From a bacterium (GTDB taxonomy: Bacteria; Patescibacteriota; Minisyncoccia; Portnoybacterales; GWB1-42-6), in NCBI GenBank assembly GCA_043800535.1, contig JAZDMV010000014.1:1-38853 (forward strand): a stretch of DNA of 38,853 nucleotides, in the 5' to 3' direction. Positions 23,200 to 37,516 of the stretch are shown piece by piece; within the stretch, counting starts at the first letter, position 1, and the number at the start of each line of letters is the position of its first letter. A model generated the notes under the pieces. It had not been told where the DNA came from. It did no database searches and was given only the letters and a program-made list of their open reading frames with translations. The position numbers were made by a program, and so were the translations under genes.

Positions 23200-23283
23200 T
23201 GCCGCGGGAGAGAGTTGAACTCTCATGAGCGTGAGCTCATACGATTTTGAGTCGTACGTGTCTGCCAGTTCCACCACCGCGGC
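23200..23283 (-). tRNA. tRNA-Leu(CAA), class II with long variable arm
   Basis: Hand-folded: acceptor GCCGCGG/CCGCGGC, D arm GTG-GAACTGGCAGA-CAC, anticodon arm TACGA-CTCAAAA-TCGTA, variable arm TGAGC-TCAC-GCTCA, T arm GAGAG-TTCAACT-CTCTC, discriminator A. No CCA is encoded. Confidence 0.85.
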
Positions 23284-33768: not shown

Positions 33769-33804
33769 CCGCGGATTCAAAATAGCTGAATCCGCGGTTT
33801 TTTT
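33769..33804. terminator. Bidirectional terminator (island ORF C / mfd)
   Basis: ccgcggattca (33769-33779) pairs with tgaatccgcgg (33787-33797), followed by ttttttt. Confidence 0.75.
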
Positions 33805-35863
33805 ATTTCTTCAATTCTTCCACCGCTTCGTTGAGCATCTGGACATAAAGATTCAGTCCAACCGCGTTGATGGAACCGCTTTGTTCTCGGCCCAAAATAT
33901 TGCCCGCGCCGCGGATTTCAAGGTCGCGCAAAGCGATTTGGTAGCCCGAGCCAAGCGCTTCGGCTTCTTTTAGCGCGTCAAGGCGCTGTTGCGCAATGTC
34001 AGTTAAGTTTTTTGCGTTATATAAAAAGTACGCGTAGGCCTGTTTGTCTGAGCGGCCGATGCGCCCGCGCAATTGGTAACTTTGTGCCAATCCTAAGCGC
34101 GTGGCGTTGGCGACTATTAATGTATTGACATTTGGAAAGTCCAGGCCGTTTTCAATGATGGTTGTGGCAATTAAAATATCAATTTGGCCGGCACCAAATT
34201 CATCCATAACTTTAATAAGCTGTTTTTCATGCAGGCGGCCATGCGCAATGCCGATTTTTGACTGCGGCGCTAATTTTTGAATTTGGCGCCGGGCCAGCTC
34301 GATCGTCTCGACACGATTGTGCAGATAGTAAACTTGCCCGCCGCGCTCTAATTCTTTTTCTATCGCTTCTTTGACTATTTTTTGCGAATATGGCTCAACG
34401 ATTGTTTTGACGCTTAGGCGTCCCGGCGGCGCGGTCTGAATTAATGAAATGTCGCGCAGGCCGGCGAGGGACAGATGCATGGTGCGAGGGATTGGCGTGG
34501 CGCTCATGCTTAAAACATCTACCCCGTAAAACTCACTTCGCTCGTCACGGGGCAGGCTCCCGTAAAACGCTTCGCCTGCTGGCGAATCGCCACGTGGCAA
34601 ACTTTTGCCGCGTCGCAGCCCTTTTAATATTTCTTTCTGCCTGACGCCATATCGTTGCTCTTCGTCAATAATAACCAGTCCCAGATTTTTAAATTCAACA
34701 TCTTTTTGGATCAGGCGGTGCGTGCCGATGGTAATGTCAATTTTGCCCTCTCTCATTTTTTTAATCGTTTCGCGCTGAAGTTTTTTTGATTCAAGCCGTG
34801 AGAGCAGGGCGATATTAACGGGAAATTTTTTGAGGCGTTTGGCAAAAGTCAGATAATGCTGGTGCGCCAAGATCGTAGTCGGTGCCAGCATCGCCACTTG
34901 TTTGCCGGCAGACACGGCCTTGAAAGCCGCGCGCAAAGCAACTTCTGTTTTGCCAAAGCCGACATCCCCACAGATCAACCGATCCATCGGCTTCTCCGAT
35001 TCCATATCTTTTTTTACGTCCTCGATCGCCCGCAGCTGGTCGTCGGTTTCTATGTATTCAAACGAATCTTCAAGTTCTCTTTGCAAAGCATCGTCAGGCG
35101 GGAATTGAAAGCCGCGGACAGCGGCGCGCCGCGCGTAAAGTTCAAATAGTTGCCTGGCTAGTTCAATCGCGCCCTCTTTGACTTTGCGTTTTGTTTTATA
35201 CCATAATGTGCCGCCGAGCCGATGGACGATAGGAGTCTCAAAGCCAATGTAGCGGGATAATTTATTTTCCAGTTCAAGCGGGACGTAAAGCGTGTCGTTT
35301 TTGGCGTAGGAAACAACAAAATATTTTTCCGTTGTGTCGGGCGTCGGCGTCTGGCCAGTCGCTTGGCCTCCGAGTTCTTTGGCATAACCTTTAAAAAATC
35401 CGATACCGTGATCAAGATGGACGAGGTATTCGCCGGGTTTTAAAGTGCTCAATAAATTCTTCGGCGCTTTTTTGACAAGCGATCTTTTTATTTCCTCGTC
35501 TTTTTTCAGGATCTTGACTTCAAGATGATAGATTTCGGCCAGGCGATTTCCAATAAACTCTGATCTATATGCTGTTTCGTTATTAACGGGGAATATATCC
35601 AGAATTCCGCCGCGTTGGGAAAATTCGCCTTTGGCGCCGAGTGTCTGGACACGTTCATATCCCATTTCGGTTAATCGGCGCAGAAGCTCAAACAAGTTTA
35701 TTCTCTCGTCTTTTTCAAGAAAAAGCGCGTTTTCTTTCCACCAGACCTGGGTTTTAGCCAGATTTTCAATTTTTGAAAAATTTTGCGAAAACCAAAAAAC
35801 ATCCCGCTCAAGAAAATAGGGGGTTATGCTGGCGATTAAAATTTTATTTCTGGCTTTATTCAT
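33803..35863 (-). CDS. mfd: Transcription-repair coupling factor, short form (686 aa) with an in-frame insertion
   Basis: RNAP-interacting block YLVHLDHGIG, helicase motifs GDVGFGKTEVA, DEEQRYG, SATPIPRT and GRIGRS. Most of the N-terminal UvrB-homology module seen in ~1150-aa Mfd is missing. Confidence 0.88.
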   Translation of the reverse strand: MNKARNKILIASITPYFLERDVFWFSQNFSKIENLAKTQVWWKENALFLEKDERINLFELLRRLTEMGYERVQTLGAKGEFSQRGGILDIFPVNNETAYRSEFIGNRLAEIYHLEVKILKKDEEIKRSLVKKAPKNLLSTLKPGEYLVHLDHGIGFFKGYAKELGGQATGQTPTPDTTEKYFVVSYAKNDTLYVPLELENKLSRYIGFETPIVHRLGGTLWYKTKRKVKEGAIELARQLFELYARRAAVRGFQFPPDDALQRELEDSFEYIETDDQLRAIEDVKKDMESEKPMDRLICGDVGFGKTEVALRAAFKAVSAGKQVAMLAPTTILAHQHYLTFAKRLKKFPVNIALLSRLESKKLQRETIKKMREGKIDITIGTHRLIQKDVEFKNLGLVIIDEEQRYGVRQKEILKGLRRGKSLPRGDSPAGEAFYGSLPRDERSEFYGVDVLSMSATPIPRTMHLSLAGLRDISLIQTAPPGRLSVKTIVEPYSQKIVKEAIEKELERGGQVYYLHNRVETIELARRQIQKLAPQSKIGIAHGRLHEKQLIKVMDEFGAGQIDILIATTIIENGLDFPNVNTLIVANATRLGLAQSYQLRGRIGRSDKQAYAYFLYNAKNLTDIAQQRLDALKEAEALGSGYQIALRDLEIRGAGNILGREQSGSINAVGLNLYVQMLNEAVEELKK
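34521..34612. repeat. In-frame repeat insertion between helicase motifs II and III of mfd
   Basis: Imperfect tandem cccgtaaaac(tca)cttcgc units (34522-34590), with hairpins ccccgt..acgggg and ggcaaa-ct-tttgcc. It encodes RGKSLPRGDSPAGEAFYGSLPRDERSEFYG. Confidence 0.7.
35796..35835. repeat. 40-bp direct repeat, copy 1 (inside the mfd 5' end)
   Basis: aaaacatcccgctcaagaaaatagggggttatgctggcga is identical to 35984-36023. Confidence 0.95.
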
Positions 35864-35937
35864 TATCTTATAGAATGCCAGGGATGTTTTTTCAGAAAGG
35901 GGTCGGGGAAACTGGGTGTTTCCCCGCGGTGGAAATA

Positions 35938-36051
35938 TTAAAACCGCAAGGTGTTAAGGAGAGAGCCGTATTCGGCGAACGACAAAACATCCCGCTCAAG
36001 AAAATAGGGGGTTATGCTGGCGACCAGAATTTTTTCATTTGTCCTTGACAT
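35938..36051 (-). pseudogene. Remnant duplicate of the mfd 5' end (37-codon ORF)
   Basis: It encodes MSRTNEKILVASITPYFLERDVLSF..., compared with MNKARNKILIASITPYFLERDVFWF in mfd. It contains 40-bp repeat copy 2 (35984-36023). Confidence 0.55.
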
Positions 36052-36074
36052 TCCTGTAGCTATTTGGGTATGAT
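36045..36074 (+). promoter_or_regulatory. Strong sigma70-like promoter driving the structured leader
   Basis: TTGACA (36045-36050), 18-nt spacer, TATGAT (36069-36074). Confidence 0.55.
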
Positions 36075-36084
36075 AGCGTATTCT

Positions 36085-36417
36085 AGTAAAAATAGCAAAG
36101 CGACTAGCAACTAGCCACTAGCGACTAGTAAGAGCTCATGCCAGTCGCTAATCTCTAGTCGCCAGTTGCTATCTATTCTGCCCAGCATCCTATCTGTGAG
36201 TGGCAAAAACCAAAACTATCCCTCCTATTGTTTTGGCAAGTAGCCGAAGTTTAGGGGTATCCTCCTTTTGGAGGCCAATCCCTGACGCTTGCAGGTAGGA
36301 TATTGGGCAGCATTTGTTTATCCTCACACCAGAAGATTATGGGCGTAAGCCAGTGGTGGATGATCTACGTGGTGTGAGGATTTAGCAGTCCTTTAAAAAT
36401 AAGCCGGAGAGGAGGAT
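36085..36417 (+). ncRNA. ~330-nt highly structured leader / candidate cis-regulatory RNA (class unknown)
   Basis: It has a 5' palindromic actagc-rich hairpin (36098-36175). A long-range helix pairs ctgcccagcatcctatctg (36178-36196) with caggtaggatattgggcag (36292-36310). A hairpin pairs atcctcacacc (36320-36330) with ggtgtgaggat (36371-36381). The anti-SD atcctcc (36259-36265) is complementary to the SD ggaggat (36411-36417). Confidence 0.45.
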
Positions 36418-36420
36418 CCT

Positions 36421-36612
36421 ATGGATAGAGATCTGATTATTATAATTAGTTTACTTGTTGTTGCGGTTGTCAGTTATGCTTTTCGGAATCCCGCACGGCC
36501 GGACAGGTATTGGAGGATTTTTTATAAGACGTGCATGTGGGCTGTTATAGCGTATTGTCTGTTATCTGCTTTATGGGACCTGGCAGCGCTTTTTTTCCCG
36601 ATCACTGAATGA
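36421..36612 (+). CDS. Small 2-TM membrane peptide (63 aa)
   Basis: SD gaggagga lies 4 nt upstream. There are two hydrophobic helices (LIIIISLLVVAVVSYAF and CMWAVIAYCLLSALWDLAALFF). Confidence 0.6.
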   Translation: MDRDLIIIISLLVVAVVSYAFRNPARPDRYWRIFYKTCMWAVIAYCLLSALWDLAALFFPITE

Positions 36613-36626
36613 AAGGAGGGAGAGAA

Positions 36627-36779
36627 ATGAAAATTATAACAGGGATAATTCTGGTGTTTGCATTCGTCTGGTTTGCTTCTCGAATAGGAGGTATGGATAA
36701 AAGCTTAAACAGTGTCGTGACATCGTTCGTGGCAGTAGTGATGTTGCTACTTCTATATTTACGGACAATTAAAGTTTAA
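36627..36779 (+). CDS. Small 2-TM membrane peptide (50 aa, below the ORF-track cutoff)
   Basis: SD aaggaggg lies 6 nt upstream of the ATG at 36627. The product is MKIITGIILVFAFVWFASRIGGMDKSLNSVVTSFVAVVMLLLLYLRTIKV. Confidence 0.55.
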   Translation: MKIITGIILVFAFVWFASRIGGMDKSLNSVVTSFVAVVMLLLLYLRTIKV

Positions 36780-36812
36780 ACTAAGGAATTCGGCTTTTTA
36801 AGGCAATTTTAA

Positions 36813-36845
36813 AAGAGGTTTCCTCGCGGAACCTCTTTTTTCTTT
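36813..36845 (+). terminator. Intrinsic terminator after the small-peptide pair
   Basis: aagaggtt(t)cc-tcgc-ggaacctctt, followed by ttttc. Confidence 0.7.
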
Positions 36846-36850
36846 GGCAG

Positions 36851-36920
36851 AAAATCTCCCCTTGCCCCTCCTAAAGGAGGGGAATTTTTTGCTCCCTCCC
36901 TTTAGGGAGGGCTGGGGAGG
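36851..36920. repeat. Double hairpin repeat of the cccctcc family
   Basis: cccctcc-taaa-ggagggg and ccctccc-ttta-gggaggg. It has the same style as 509-590 and 2041-2075. Confidence 0.75.
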
Positions 36921-36922
36921 AT

Positions 36923-37516
36923 TTAGTTGAACTGACTCATTGCCTGCTCAATGCCTTCTTTGAGCGCTAGCTCAATCGTCTGGGAAGTTTTTTGGGTTAT
37001 TTCTTCAGCAGTTTTTTGTTCCTGTTTGTCAAAATTTTTCAGAACAAATTTCTCAATGGAAAGCATTTTTTTGAAAAGCACGCTGAAAAATGTTTTGCCG
37101 ACAGGATGAATGCCTAATCGTATCCGGACAAAATCTTTTGTGCCAAGCGCCTCAATGATAGATCTGACTCCCTTGTGGCCGGCGCAGGAGGCGCCTCGGC
37201 TGAGGCGTATAATTCCCAGCGGCAGATCATAGTCGTCATGAACCACCCAGATGTCTTGGGTGCTTATTTTATAAAAATTGGCTAAATTGGCGGCCGCAGT
37301 GCCTGACAGGTTCATAAATGTCTGGGGCTTGGCAAGGATGAGGTGTTCGTCGCCCGTCTGACCTTTTGACATCAGCGCGTTGGCGCTTTTATCCATCGAC
37401 CATGGTTCAAGCCCGGGAAAATTTTTGTGAAAGCAGTCAATGGCTAAAAACCCGAAATTATGGCGGGTGCGTTCGTATTTAGTTCCCGGATTGCCGAGGC
37501 CGATGATTAATTTCAT
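36923..37516 (-). CDS. pth: Peptidyl-tRNA hydrolase
   Basis: MKLIIGLGNPG.KYE.TRHN.GF and VVHDD.DLP.G..RL motifs. Confidence 0.92.
   Translation of the reverse strand: MKLIIGLGNPGTKYERTRHNFGFLAIDCFHKNFPGLEPWSMDKSANALMSKGQTGDEHLILAKPQTFMNLSGTAAANLANFYKISTQDIWVVHDDYDLPLGIIRLSRGASCAGHKGVRSIIEALGTKDFVRIRLGIHPVGKTFFSVLFKKMLSIEKFVLKNFDKQEQKTAEEITQKTSQTIELALKEGIEQAMSQFN

Follow-up and report, generated by a model that had tools for sequence, protein, structure and literature searches.

Gram-positive bacteria carry several small RNAs (sRNAs) with C-rich loops, including RoxS/RsaE, the actinobacterial 6C RNA and LhrC, which are presumed to pair with the G-rich Shine-Dalgarno (SD) regions of mRNAs. In the SAM-III/SMK box, a translational riboswitch, the SD is hidden by an internal anti-SD sequence, and type I toxin mRNAs of the hok, tisB and aapA types have long folded 5´ untranslated regions (UTRs). 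Here we describe an RNA that shares features with all of these systems. It is encoded on the plus strand at positions 36175-36313 (~139 nt) of a 38,853-nt stretch of DNA from a member of the Patescibacteria (contig JAZDMV010000014.1, assembly GCA_043800535.1, forward strand; the whole stretch is called the window, and all plain coordinates refer to it), in the region between mfd and pth. An earlier look at the letters of this DNA, here called the sequence-only reading, had taken the region for a structured leader of two small membrane-peptide genes, either riboswitch-like or type I toxin-like. We find that 36175-36313 is almost certainly a real, independently transcribed structured RNA gene, and that the RNA family it represents is undescribed, Rfam 15 being without it, and widely conserved in the Patescibacteria, or Candidate Phyla Radiation (CPR). 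As the best explanation of the whole we propose, rating its chances at about even, a stand-alone structured sRNA gene whose product pairs with SD sites and which here also serves as a leader.

The fold consists of a closing helix (P1) of ~26 bp, 36175-36201 paired with 36287-36313, capped by a three-way junction with two further arms, P2 (36202-36245) and P3 (36252-36284), and a purine-rich joining strand between these arms. The 19-bp long-range helix that the sequence-only reading had drawn between 36178-36196 and 36292-36310 is present and extends to the full P1. P2 holds an apical loop and an internal loop (36205-36209 opposite 36238-36242, AAGTA), which resembles a loop-E or bulged-G motif; by eye, an AGUA-type 3´ strand opposite GAA(A) was seen in many members of several classes, though not in family f6. 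For an alignment of 14 sequences, RNAalifold predicted 43 pairs, 27 of them with compensatory changes; a covariance model (R1) was built, and 45 members were then collected. In the alignment of these 45, 95.4% of the base-pair cells were standard pairs compared to 72.4% in shuffles, a percentage inflated by the fitting of the alignment to the model, and slid partner controls paired at 35-49%. Both sides changed in 41/43 pairs, and 0/500 shuffles reached the observed values. The expectation of a real structured RNA at this place is thus borne out by strong covariation. G-U and U-G cells outnumbered A-C and C-A cells by 279 to 30, an excess that places the RNA on the plus strand. Some members are only 83-105 nt long, and six short ones lack P3 and keep only P1 and the loop hairpin, a finding that makes it less likely that the junction holds a ligand pocket.

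A near-invariant part of the RNA is the apical loop of P2 (36217-36229), which carries an anti-SD-like element, ATCCCTCCTA, at 36219-36228. Loop length in the family varies from 12 to 16 nt, and CCUCCU was found in the loop of 45/45 aligned members; among 65 members, CCUCC was present in 65, CCUCCU in 64 and CCCUCCU in 61. CCUCC lies in the hairpin loop of P2 in every case and all stems vary, so that an invariant seed sits within a variable, compensating scaffold, as is characteristic of the sRNA class. The 16S ribosomal RNA (rRNA) of the same genome ends in GGATCACCTCCTTTCT, a canonical tail with the same CCUCC core, and the likeness between loop and tail continues past this core (AUC-CCUCCU in the loop, AUCACCUCCU in the 16S rRNA). 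An exact anti-SD had been predicted at 36259-36265, within the sequence tcctcc-tttt-ggagg (36259-36275). This site turned out to be the variable apex of P3, where only the pairing is kept; an anti-SD-like element does exist, and the conserved one is the P2 loop. We also noted that the 16S rRNA gene at C14 30584-32745 matches the Rfam model in pieces, with ~1.3 kb of DNA over ~330 model positions; the gene on this contig holds a large insertion. A second 16S match was found at C9 74404-76347, partly at the contig end.

The RNA is present at a single locus in its own genome. For the phylum sample a broader covariance model, R2, was used. Distribution searches were run with the stricter filters of Infernal, and the genome counts are consequently lower bounds. 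In the order to which the genome belongs, the RNA was detected in 45/59 genomes (36/44 of those of high quality). It was detected in 28 of the 151 genomes of a class sample, 22 of them outside the order, and, with R2, in 22 of the 151 genomes of a phylum sample, 20 of them in other classes. Genomes carry one RNA each, except for G181, where a tandem pair was found at C88 11004-11279 (L058); the two copies lie 3 nt apart and have G+C contents of 0.51 and 0.34. An exact-pattern scan of public genomes returned seven stretches. Four of these were confirmed by R2, three in metagenome-assembled genomes (MAGs) labelled Candidatus Portnoybacteria, a lineage that NCBI puts in the Parcubacteria group of Patescibacteria, and one in a MAG labelled Saccharibacteria. 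Gene neighborhoods were examined at 64 loci, comprising 30 in the order (12 in family f6 and 18 outside it), 14 in other orders of the class and 20 in other classes.

Upstream of the RNA, the near-consensus sigma-70-type promoter of the sequence-only reading, TTGACA-18-TATGAT, is present at 36045-36074 on the plus strand and matches 11 of the 12 consensus positions. Scoring all loci by matches to the 12-position consensus, we found promoters of at least 10/12 in the 75 nt before the RNA in 48/64 loci, compared to 28/1280 control windows. In the window the promoter is ~100 nt upstream of the RNA because a repeat has been inserted between them; at the locus of a relative of the same genus, where the -10 region is kept, the conserved element begins ~25 nt after it. 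Among the 33 loci without any SD-led open reading frame (ORF) after the RNA, 19 have a terminator directly behind it, and more can be seen by eye (L014, for example). Possession of its own promoter and its own terminator, like the invariant loop, is what is expected of an sRNA gene. As a stand-alone gene with both signals and a conserved C-rich hairpin-loop motif, it resembles RoxS/RsaE, 6C RNA and LhrC, and like these it is conserved unusually widely for an sRNA. It differs from them in having one loop with an exact anti-SD core, where they have several UCCC or C-run loops, in its ~26-bp helix and three-way junction, and in its occurrence in Patescibacteria, next to pth. No Rfam model for these sRNAs scores on it or on 20 homologous loci.

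More generally, no known RNA class was recognized. With Rfam 15 at gathering thresholds, the only match in the whole window was a tRNA at 23200-23283. When 35600-37000 was searched with E up to 10, nothing credible was found at 36080-36420, the best match being SNORD44 (15.4 bits, E = 5.2), and twenty homologous loci gave 0 Rfam matches at E up to 0.01. The statement of the sequence-only reading that the leader could not be matched to a known class thus holds, for the window as well as for homologous loci. A full-text literature search listed no account of such an RNA; passages of PMC10768705 concern genes of the host bacterium.

The conserved RNA accounts for only part of what had been described as a single, densely paired leader of ~330 nt. 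Strong folding was confirmed: the 346-nt stretch after the promoter has a folding energy of -133.9 kcal/mol compared to a shuffle mean of -99.4 kcal/mol (z = -6.6, with 0/100 shuffles as good), and the opposite strand also folds well (z = -5.7). As a unit, the leader did not hold together, since only 36175-36313 is kept in relatives. When 60 relatives were searched, only query positions ~131-276 (window 36175-36320) matched repeatedly, in 13 loci, all 13 of which have pth and eight of which have mfd. The 5´ palindromic hairpin at 36098-36175 is present and lies outside the conserved RNA. It is a palindromic repeat of heptad units whose insertion has separated the promoter from the RNA, and a DNA search of the same genome found six other copies with 70-87% identity (C32 18144-18228, C10 8433-8511, C5 614-699, C25 21042-21109 and 57903-57973, and C11 7703-7733). 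The 7-nt units of this repeat family end in ACTAG. Similar heptad palindromes were observed beside the RNA or pth at four loci in other classes (L083, L085, L036 and L095). The 62-nt hairpin on the other side of the RNA (36320-36381, plus strand) is likewise present, as a small repeat that has been inserted ahead of the first ORF. It has two other copies in the genome (C28 4624-4658 and C8 164194-164237) and a match in G011, and the copies have a 12-bp GC-rich stem and a common loop sequence. No Rfam family matches this hairpin, which may act as a leaky terminator. Both flanking hairpins are missing at the same-genus locus and are lineage-specific repeat insertions, so neither can be counted as part of a conserved leader. 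The sequence-only reading had itself allowed that the leader might be merely a copy of a dispersed repeat, and for two of its three fold elements this proved to be the case.

Behind the second repeat, the two ORFs that had been reported, each led by an SD and encoding two hydrophobic segments, were found on the plus strand, one of 63 amino acids at 36421-36612 (SD gaggagga) and one of 50 amino acids at 36627-36779 (56 amino acids from the ATG at 36609; SD aaggaggg). The reported terminator is also present, at 36811-36839 on the same strand, as a 12-pair stem with a T run behind it, and would end a transcript comprising both the RNA and the peptide ORFs. Counting SD-led ORFs that encode at least one hydrophobic helix and start no more than 125 nt after the RNA, we found such an ORF in 20/30 loci of the order and in 2/34 loci elsewhere (9/18 outside f6, 11/12 in f6, 2/14 in other orders of the class and 0/20 in other classes). 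A leader placed ahead of small two-helix membrane ORFs is thus a fair description within the order; as a fixed tie it fails. In the 20 loci the ORFs begin 21-108 nt after the RNA. In f6, a small SD-led ORF lies 29-52 nt after the RNA in 11/12 loci, and ten of these first ORFs encode two hydrophobic helices; L047 and L052 have a short one-helix ORF first and a two-helix ORF second. Eleven two-helix peptides of f6 make up a family with weak conservation. In 42/64 loci the RNA is not followed by an SD-led membrane ORF. Loci lacking an ORF have a terminator or the end of pth after the RNA, which is no less conserved there than at other loci. This conservation indicates that the RNA is an independent gene and that the peptide genes are an addition in the order. 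As a separate observation, in one family of another class, an SD-led ORF for a very basic protein of 50 amino acids, and not a membrane peptide, begins ~81 nt after the RNA at L089 (G238), and the same basic peptide sequence occurs within a longer ORF call at L090 (G211).

The peptides themselves are poorly conserved. Neither of the two in the window had a tblastn match in the 63 other loci, and no homologue of either was returned by a word-based search of a 5.8-billion-cluster protein set that covered near lengths only. Pfam gave nothing significant for 13 peptides, including both from the window, and hhalign comparison with the f6 peptide family gave a probability of 6.4% (E = 0.0057) for the 50-amino-acid peptide and of 0.35% for the other. 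Peptide sequences are not conserved even within a genus. Judged by their sequences, the two peptides of the window are orphan ORFs that ride on the promoter of the RNA as lineage-specific passengers. In favor of their translation are the strong SDs, the two hydrophobic segments and the fact that ORFs of this kind recur at the same position.

Of the neighboring genes, pth (peptidyl-tRNA hydrolase, 36923-37516, minus strand; PF01195, E = 1.6e-57) is convergent with the RNA unit, and mfd (transcription-repair coupling factor, 33803-35863, minus strand; identified by Pfam domains and tblastn synteny) is divergent from the RNA promoter. On the far side of pth is an LCP-family gene. The conserved neighbor of the RNA is pth, which was found within 1.6 kb of the RNA in 63/64 loci (30/30 in the order, 13/14 in other orders and 20/20 in other classes) and is convergent with the RNA in 61. 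The ends of the RNA and of the pth match are 3-5 nt apart in several loci, and the adjacency has been kept through two local inversions (L070 and L099). In family f1, the RNA unit is located between co-oriented pth and mfd. The LCP-family gene, however, is often syntenic with pth too, and the linkage of the RNA to pth may thus be plain inherited gene order. At the pth starts of 50 loci, including the window (37516), GGAGG was found in 0/50 and a 4-mer SD core in 5/50. A -10-like box was noted ~7 nt before the pth ATG in several loci, suggesting that pth mRNAs may be leaderless there. Just past the pth stop codon, 36849-36926 contains two adjoining hairpins with CCCTCC and GGAGGG arms; this is probably the terminator region of pth, and it is the source of spurious microRNA-like Rfam hits.

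The other flank carries a relic of the 5´ end of mfd. A direct repeat (35790-35845 and 35978-36033, 91% identity) represents a duplication of the first ~24 codons of mfd 188 bp upstream, and the resulting ORF of 37 amino acids (35938-36051, minus strand) has its ATG under the -35 box of the RNA promoter, the relic start codon overlapping TTGACA. At the same-genus locus L031, the genuine mfd start overlaps the -35 box in like manner. A comparable second match to the mfd N-terminus was observed in G006 (L030).

Given the single copy and wide distribution of the RNA, known housekeeping RNAs were considered. For the signal recognition particle (SRP) RNA, RF00169 had 0 matches in the genome at E up to 10 and was found in 0/31 genomes, and RF01854 likewise gave 0. 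A scan with a hand-made helix-8 motif gave one candidate, on C11, which was rejected; Rfam found nothing there, and no Ffh or FtsY was found. Searches for an SRP54-type GTPase returned only P-loop fragments in 26 genomes and, at E up to 1e-10, nothing in any of the 151 genomes that make up the phylum sample, a weak hit proving to be a Mur-ligase-like ORF. No Ffh M domain was found, and no ORF of the genome had the G3 motif. Two MAGs from other phyla did give full-length matches in the same SRP54 search. We thus observed no SRP system in this genome (G000), in relatives G001-G025 or in the phylum sample, the RNA having been sought in 30 relatives; a full-text literature search listed nothing on the loss of SRP in this group. 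6S RNA forms a rod of ~180 nt that is opened by a bubble at its center. RF00013 gave 0 matches in the genome and none at the locus, and 6S RNA was set aside on this ground and on the three-way junction and the 83-105-nt length of some members. 5S rRNA was also rejected: that of the genome is at C6 2600-2711 (82.4 bits), and RF00001 did not match at the locus. Finally, ARAGORN found no transfer-messenger RNA (tmRNA) in the assembly, where Rfam gave only sub-threshold tRNA-like hits; across this genome and 12 relatives, Rfam detected a full-length tmRNA in 11/13. The lack of tmRNA is probably an assembly gap that is unrelated to the conserved RNA.

How might the RNA act? In the explanation that we favor, it would be transcribed from its own near-consensus sigma-70 promoter, and its exposed CCUCC(U) loop would pair with the GGAGG SD elements of mRNAs and block binding of the 30S subunit. 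It would act in trans on SD-led mRNAs and, in the order, first in cis on the strongly SD-led membrane-peptide ORFs of the same transcript. Such a mechanism would mirror that of the C-rich-loop sRNAs of other phyla. Across the phylum the loop does not vary, as would be expected if its partner were itself fixed; the SD meets this description, and so, equally well, does a protein or ribosomal site that reads the 16S tail. Counting in favor of the use in cis, only 134 of 845 genes of the genome, called crudely with a greedy ORF picker, have a GGAGG SD, while 236 have a 4-mer core and 475 neither. A genome scan for extended complementarity returned only generic strong SDs, in the form of 20 ORFs with AGGAGGG or GGAGGGA. 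The idea that SD-led genes are richer in membrane or secreted proteins was dropped, as a hydrophobic N-terminus was predicted for 29/134 GGAGG-led and 142/475 SD-less genes, a difference in the opposite direction (Fisher p = 0.065) that is subject to the same crude gene calls. Several points weigh against SD pairing. Pairing with GGAGG is generic, so that complementarity to the downstream SDs proves nothing, and the best hand-drawn duplex in cis, with the SD of the first peptide, has only ~6 bp. The long P1, the loop-E-like loop and the purine-rich junction exceed the needs of a seed hairpin, as might be expected of an RNA that has a protein or the ribosome for a partner. The adjacency to pth across the phylum is not explained by pairing, and pth, which has no SD, is not an obvious target. 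The inflated percentage of paired cells mentioned above belongs here as well.

The conserved scaffold leaves room for the possibility, which we regard as rather unlikely, that the RNA is a decoy or mimic of the 16S 3´ tail. It would then work mainly by binding the ribosome or a protein, such as a factor that recognizes the anti-SD tail when the 30S subunit matures or initiates, and not by pairing with mRNAs. The loop shares with the 16S tail the CCUCC(U) core and similar flanks, the scaffold with its fixed three-way junction and its internal loop, presumably of the loop-E type, is kept over the phylum, and the single copy, strong promoter and wide distribution are housekeeping-like traits. The resemblance has limits, as the loop is a closed hairpin loop of a 139-nt RNA whereas the tail is a free 3´ end, and the rRNA gene is intact and canonical. 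The neighbors of the RNA, pth, mfd and the LCP-family gene, include no candidate for a protein partner, and the six members without P3, together with the absence of the loop-E-like motif from f6, indicate that little beyond the loop is universal. That the RNA is instead a cis-acting leader, a riboswitch-like or translational-switch 5´ UTR controlling the membrane-peptide genes, is also unlikely in our view. Within the order, this reading draws on the f6 loci, where a small SD-led ORF nearly always follows and the two-helix peptides form a family, and on the half of the remaining loci with a hydrophobic SD-led ORF; the anti-SD-like loop could sequester the downstream SDs. The arrangement in the window and in those loci of the order that have the ORF is indeed like that of the SAM-III/SMK box, with a structured 5´ region containing an anti-SD-like sequence ahead of an SD-led ORF. 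Unlike the SAM-III/SMK box, however, the RNA occurs by itself at most loci of other orders and classes, the SD lies outside the conserved fold at a variable distance, and P3 is dispensable. A riboswitch or leader would hold a consistent position upstream of the gene that it controls, and here the position is inconsistent; a pure leader would not persist against a terminator or the end of pth, as this RNA does. The junction is moderately conserved, and we saw no conserved alternative helix in the linkers, nor are the peptides conserved. The sequence-only interpretation of the region as a leader holds only in part.

The remaining alternatives are weaker still. Convergence with pth could mean that the unit is an antisense element or insulator of the pth-mfd region, limiting read-through from pth or modulating its 3´ end. 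The near-constant proximity of pth, the few nucleotides between the two in several loci, the survival of the arrangement through inversions and the placement of the unit in f1 would all be expected of such an element. The near-invariant loop and the covarying three-way junction would then lack an explanation, and, given the shared synteny of the LCP-family gene, the linkage may be inherited gene order; we consider an antisense or insulator element very unlikely. A locus resembling a type I toxin-antitoxin system, in which membrane toxin peptides would be silenced by a structured 5´ UTR, shares with hok, tisB and aapA the strong promoter, the long untranslated and folded region, and the small, strongly SD-led hydrophobic ORFs, and the fast evolution of the peptides is also common among type I toxins. 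It differs from them on the antisense side: we saw no evident or conserved gene for an antisense RNA, and the sole minus-strand promoter-like site within the locus, at 36098-36070, matches 9/12 positions. The two-helix peptides of 50-63 amino acids had no homologues in the relatives' loci or in the protein search (PADLOC and toxin-antitoxin-specific libraries were not searched), and no hydrophobic toxin ORF is conserved with the locus. What is conserved is the RNA, far better than the orphan peptides, which are missing from most loci. We see no support for the type I toxin-like interpretation and regard it as highly improbable. Just as improbable is a known housekeeping RNA (SRP RNA, 6S RNA or 5S rRNA) in a form so divergent that the Rfam models have missed it. 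The lack of detectable SRP RNA in the genome and its 30 relatives, and of 6S RNA in the genome, leaves room for one, and the RNA is single-copy, widespread and strongly promoted; there is, however, no SRP54-type GTPase or Ffh M domain and hence no SRP protein to bind, the 5S rRNA is encoded elsewhere, no clan member scores here at E up to 10, and short forms of 90 nt are too small for 6S RNA.

Almost nothing is known about the regulatory RNAs of the CPR, whose members have tiny genomes and few recognizable regulators. One further possibility, rather unlikely at present, is that the Patescibacteria have in this RNA a housekeeping "free anti-SD" of their own, an abundant decoy carrying the mRNA-docking sequence of the ribosome. 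In this genome a minority of genes have an SD and the neighboring pth has none. If the RNA were such a decoy, it would either compete with the 30S subunit for SD sites or titrate a factor by which the 16S tail is read, and would in this way set the balance between the translation of SD-led mRNAs and that of SD-less or leaderless mRNAs. Conserved across several classes, single-copy, strongly promoted, very well supported by covariation and displaying the anti-SD core, the RNA is a concrete and testable candidate for a global translational regulator or a ribosome-tail mimic in Patescibacteria, and the covariance model is ready to be used for annotating the genomes of this phylum.

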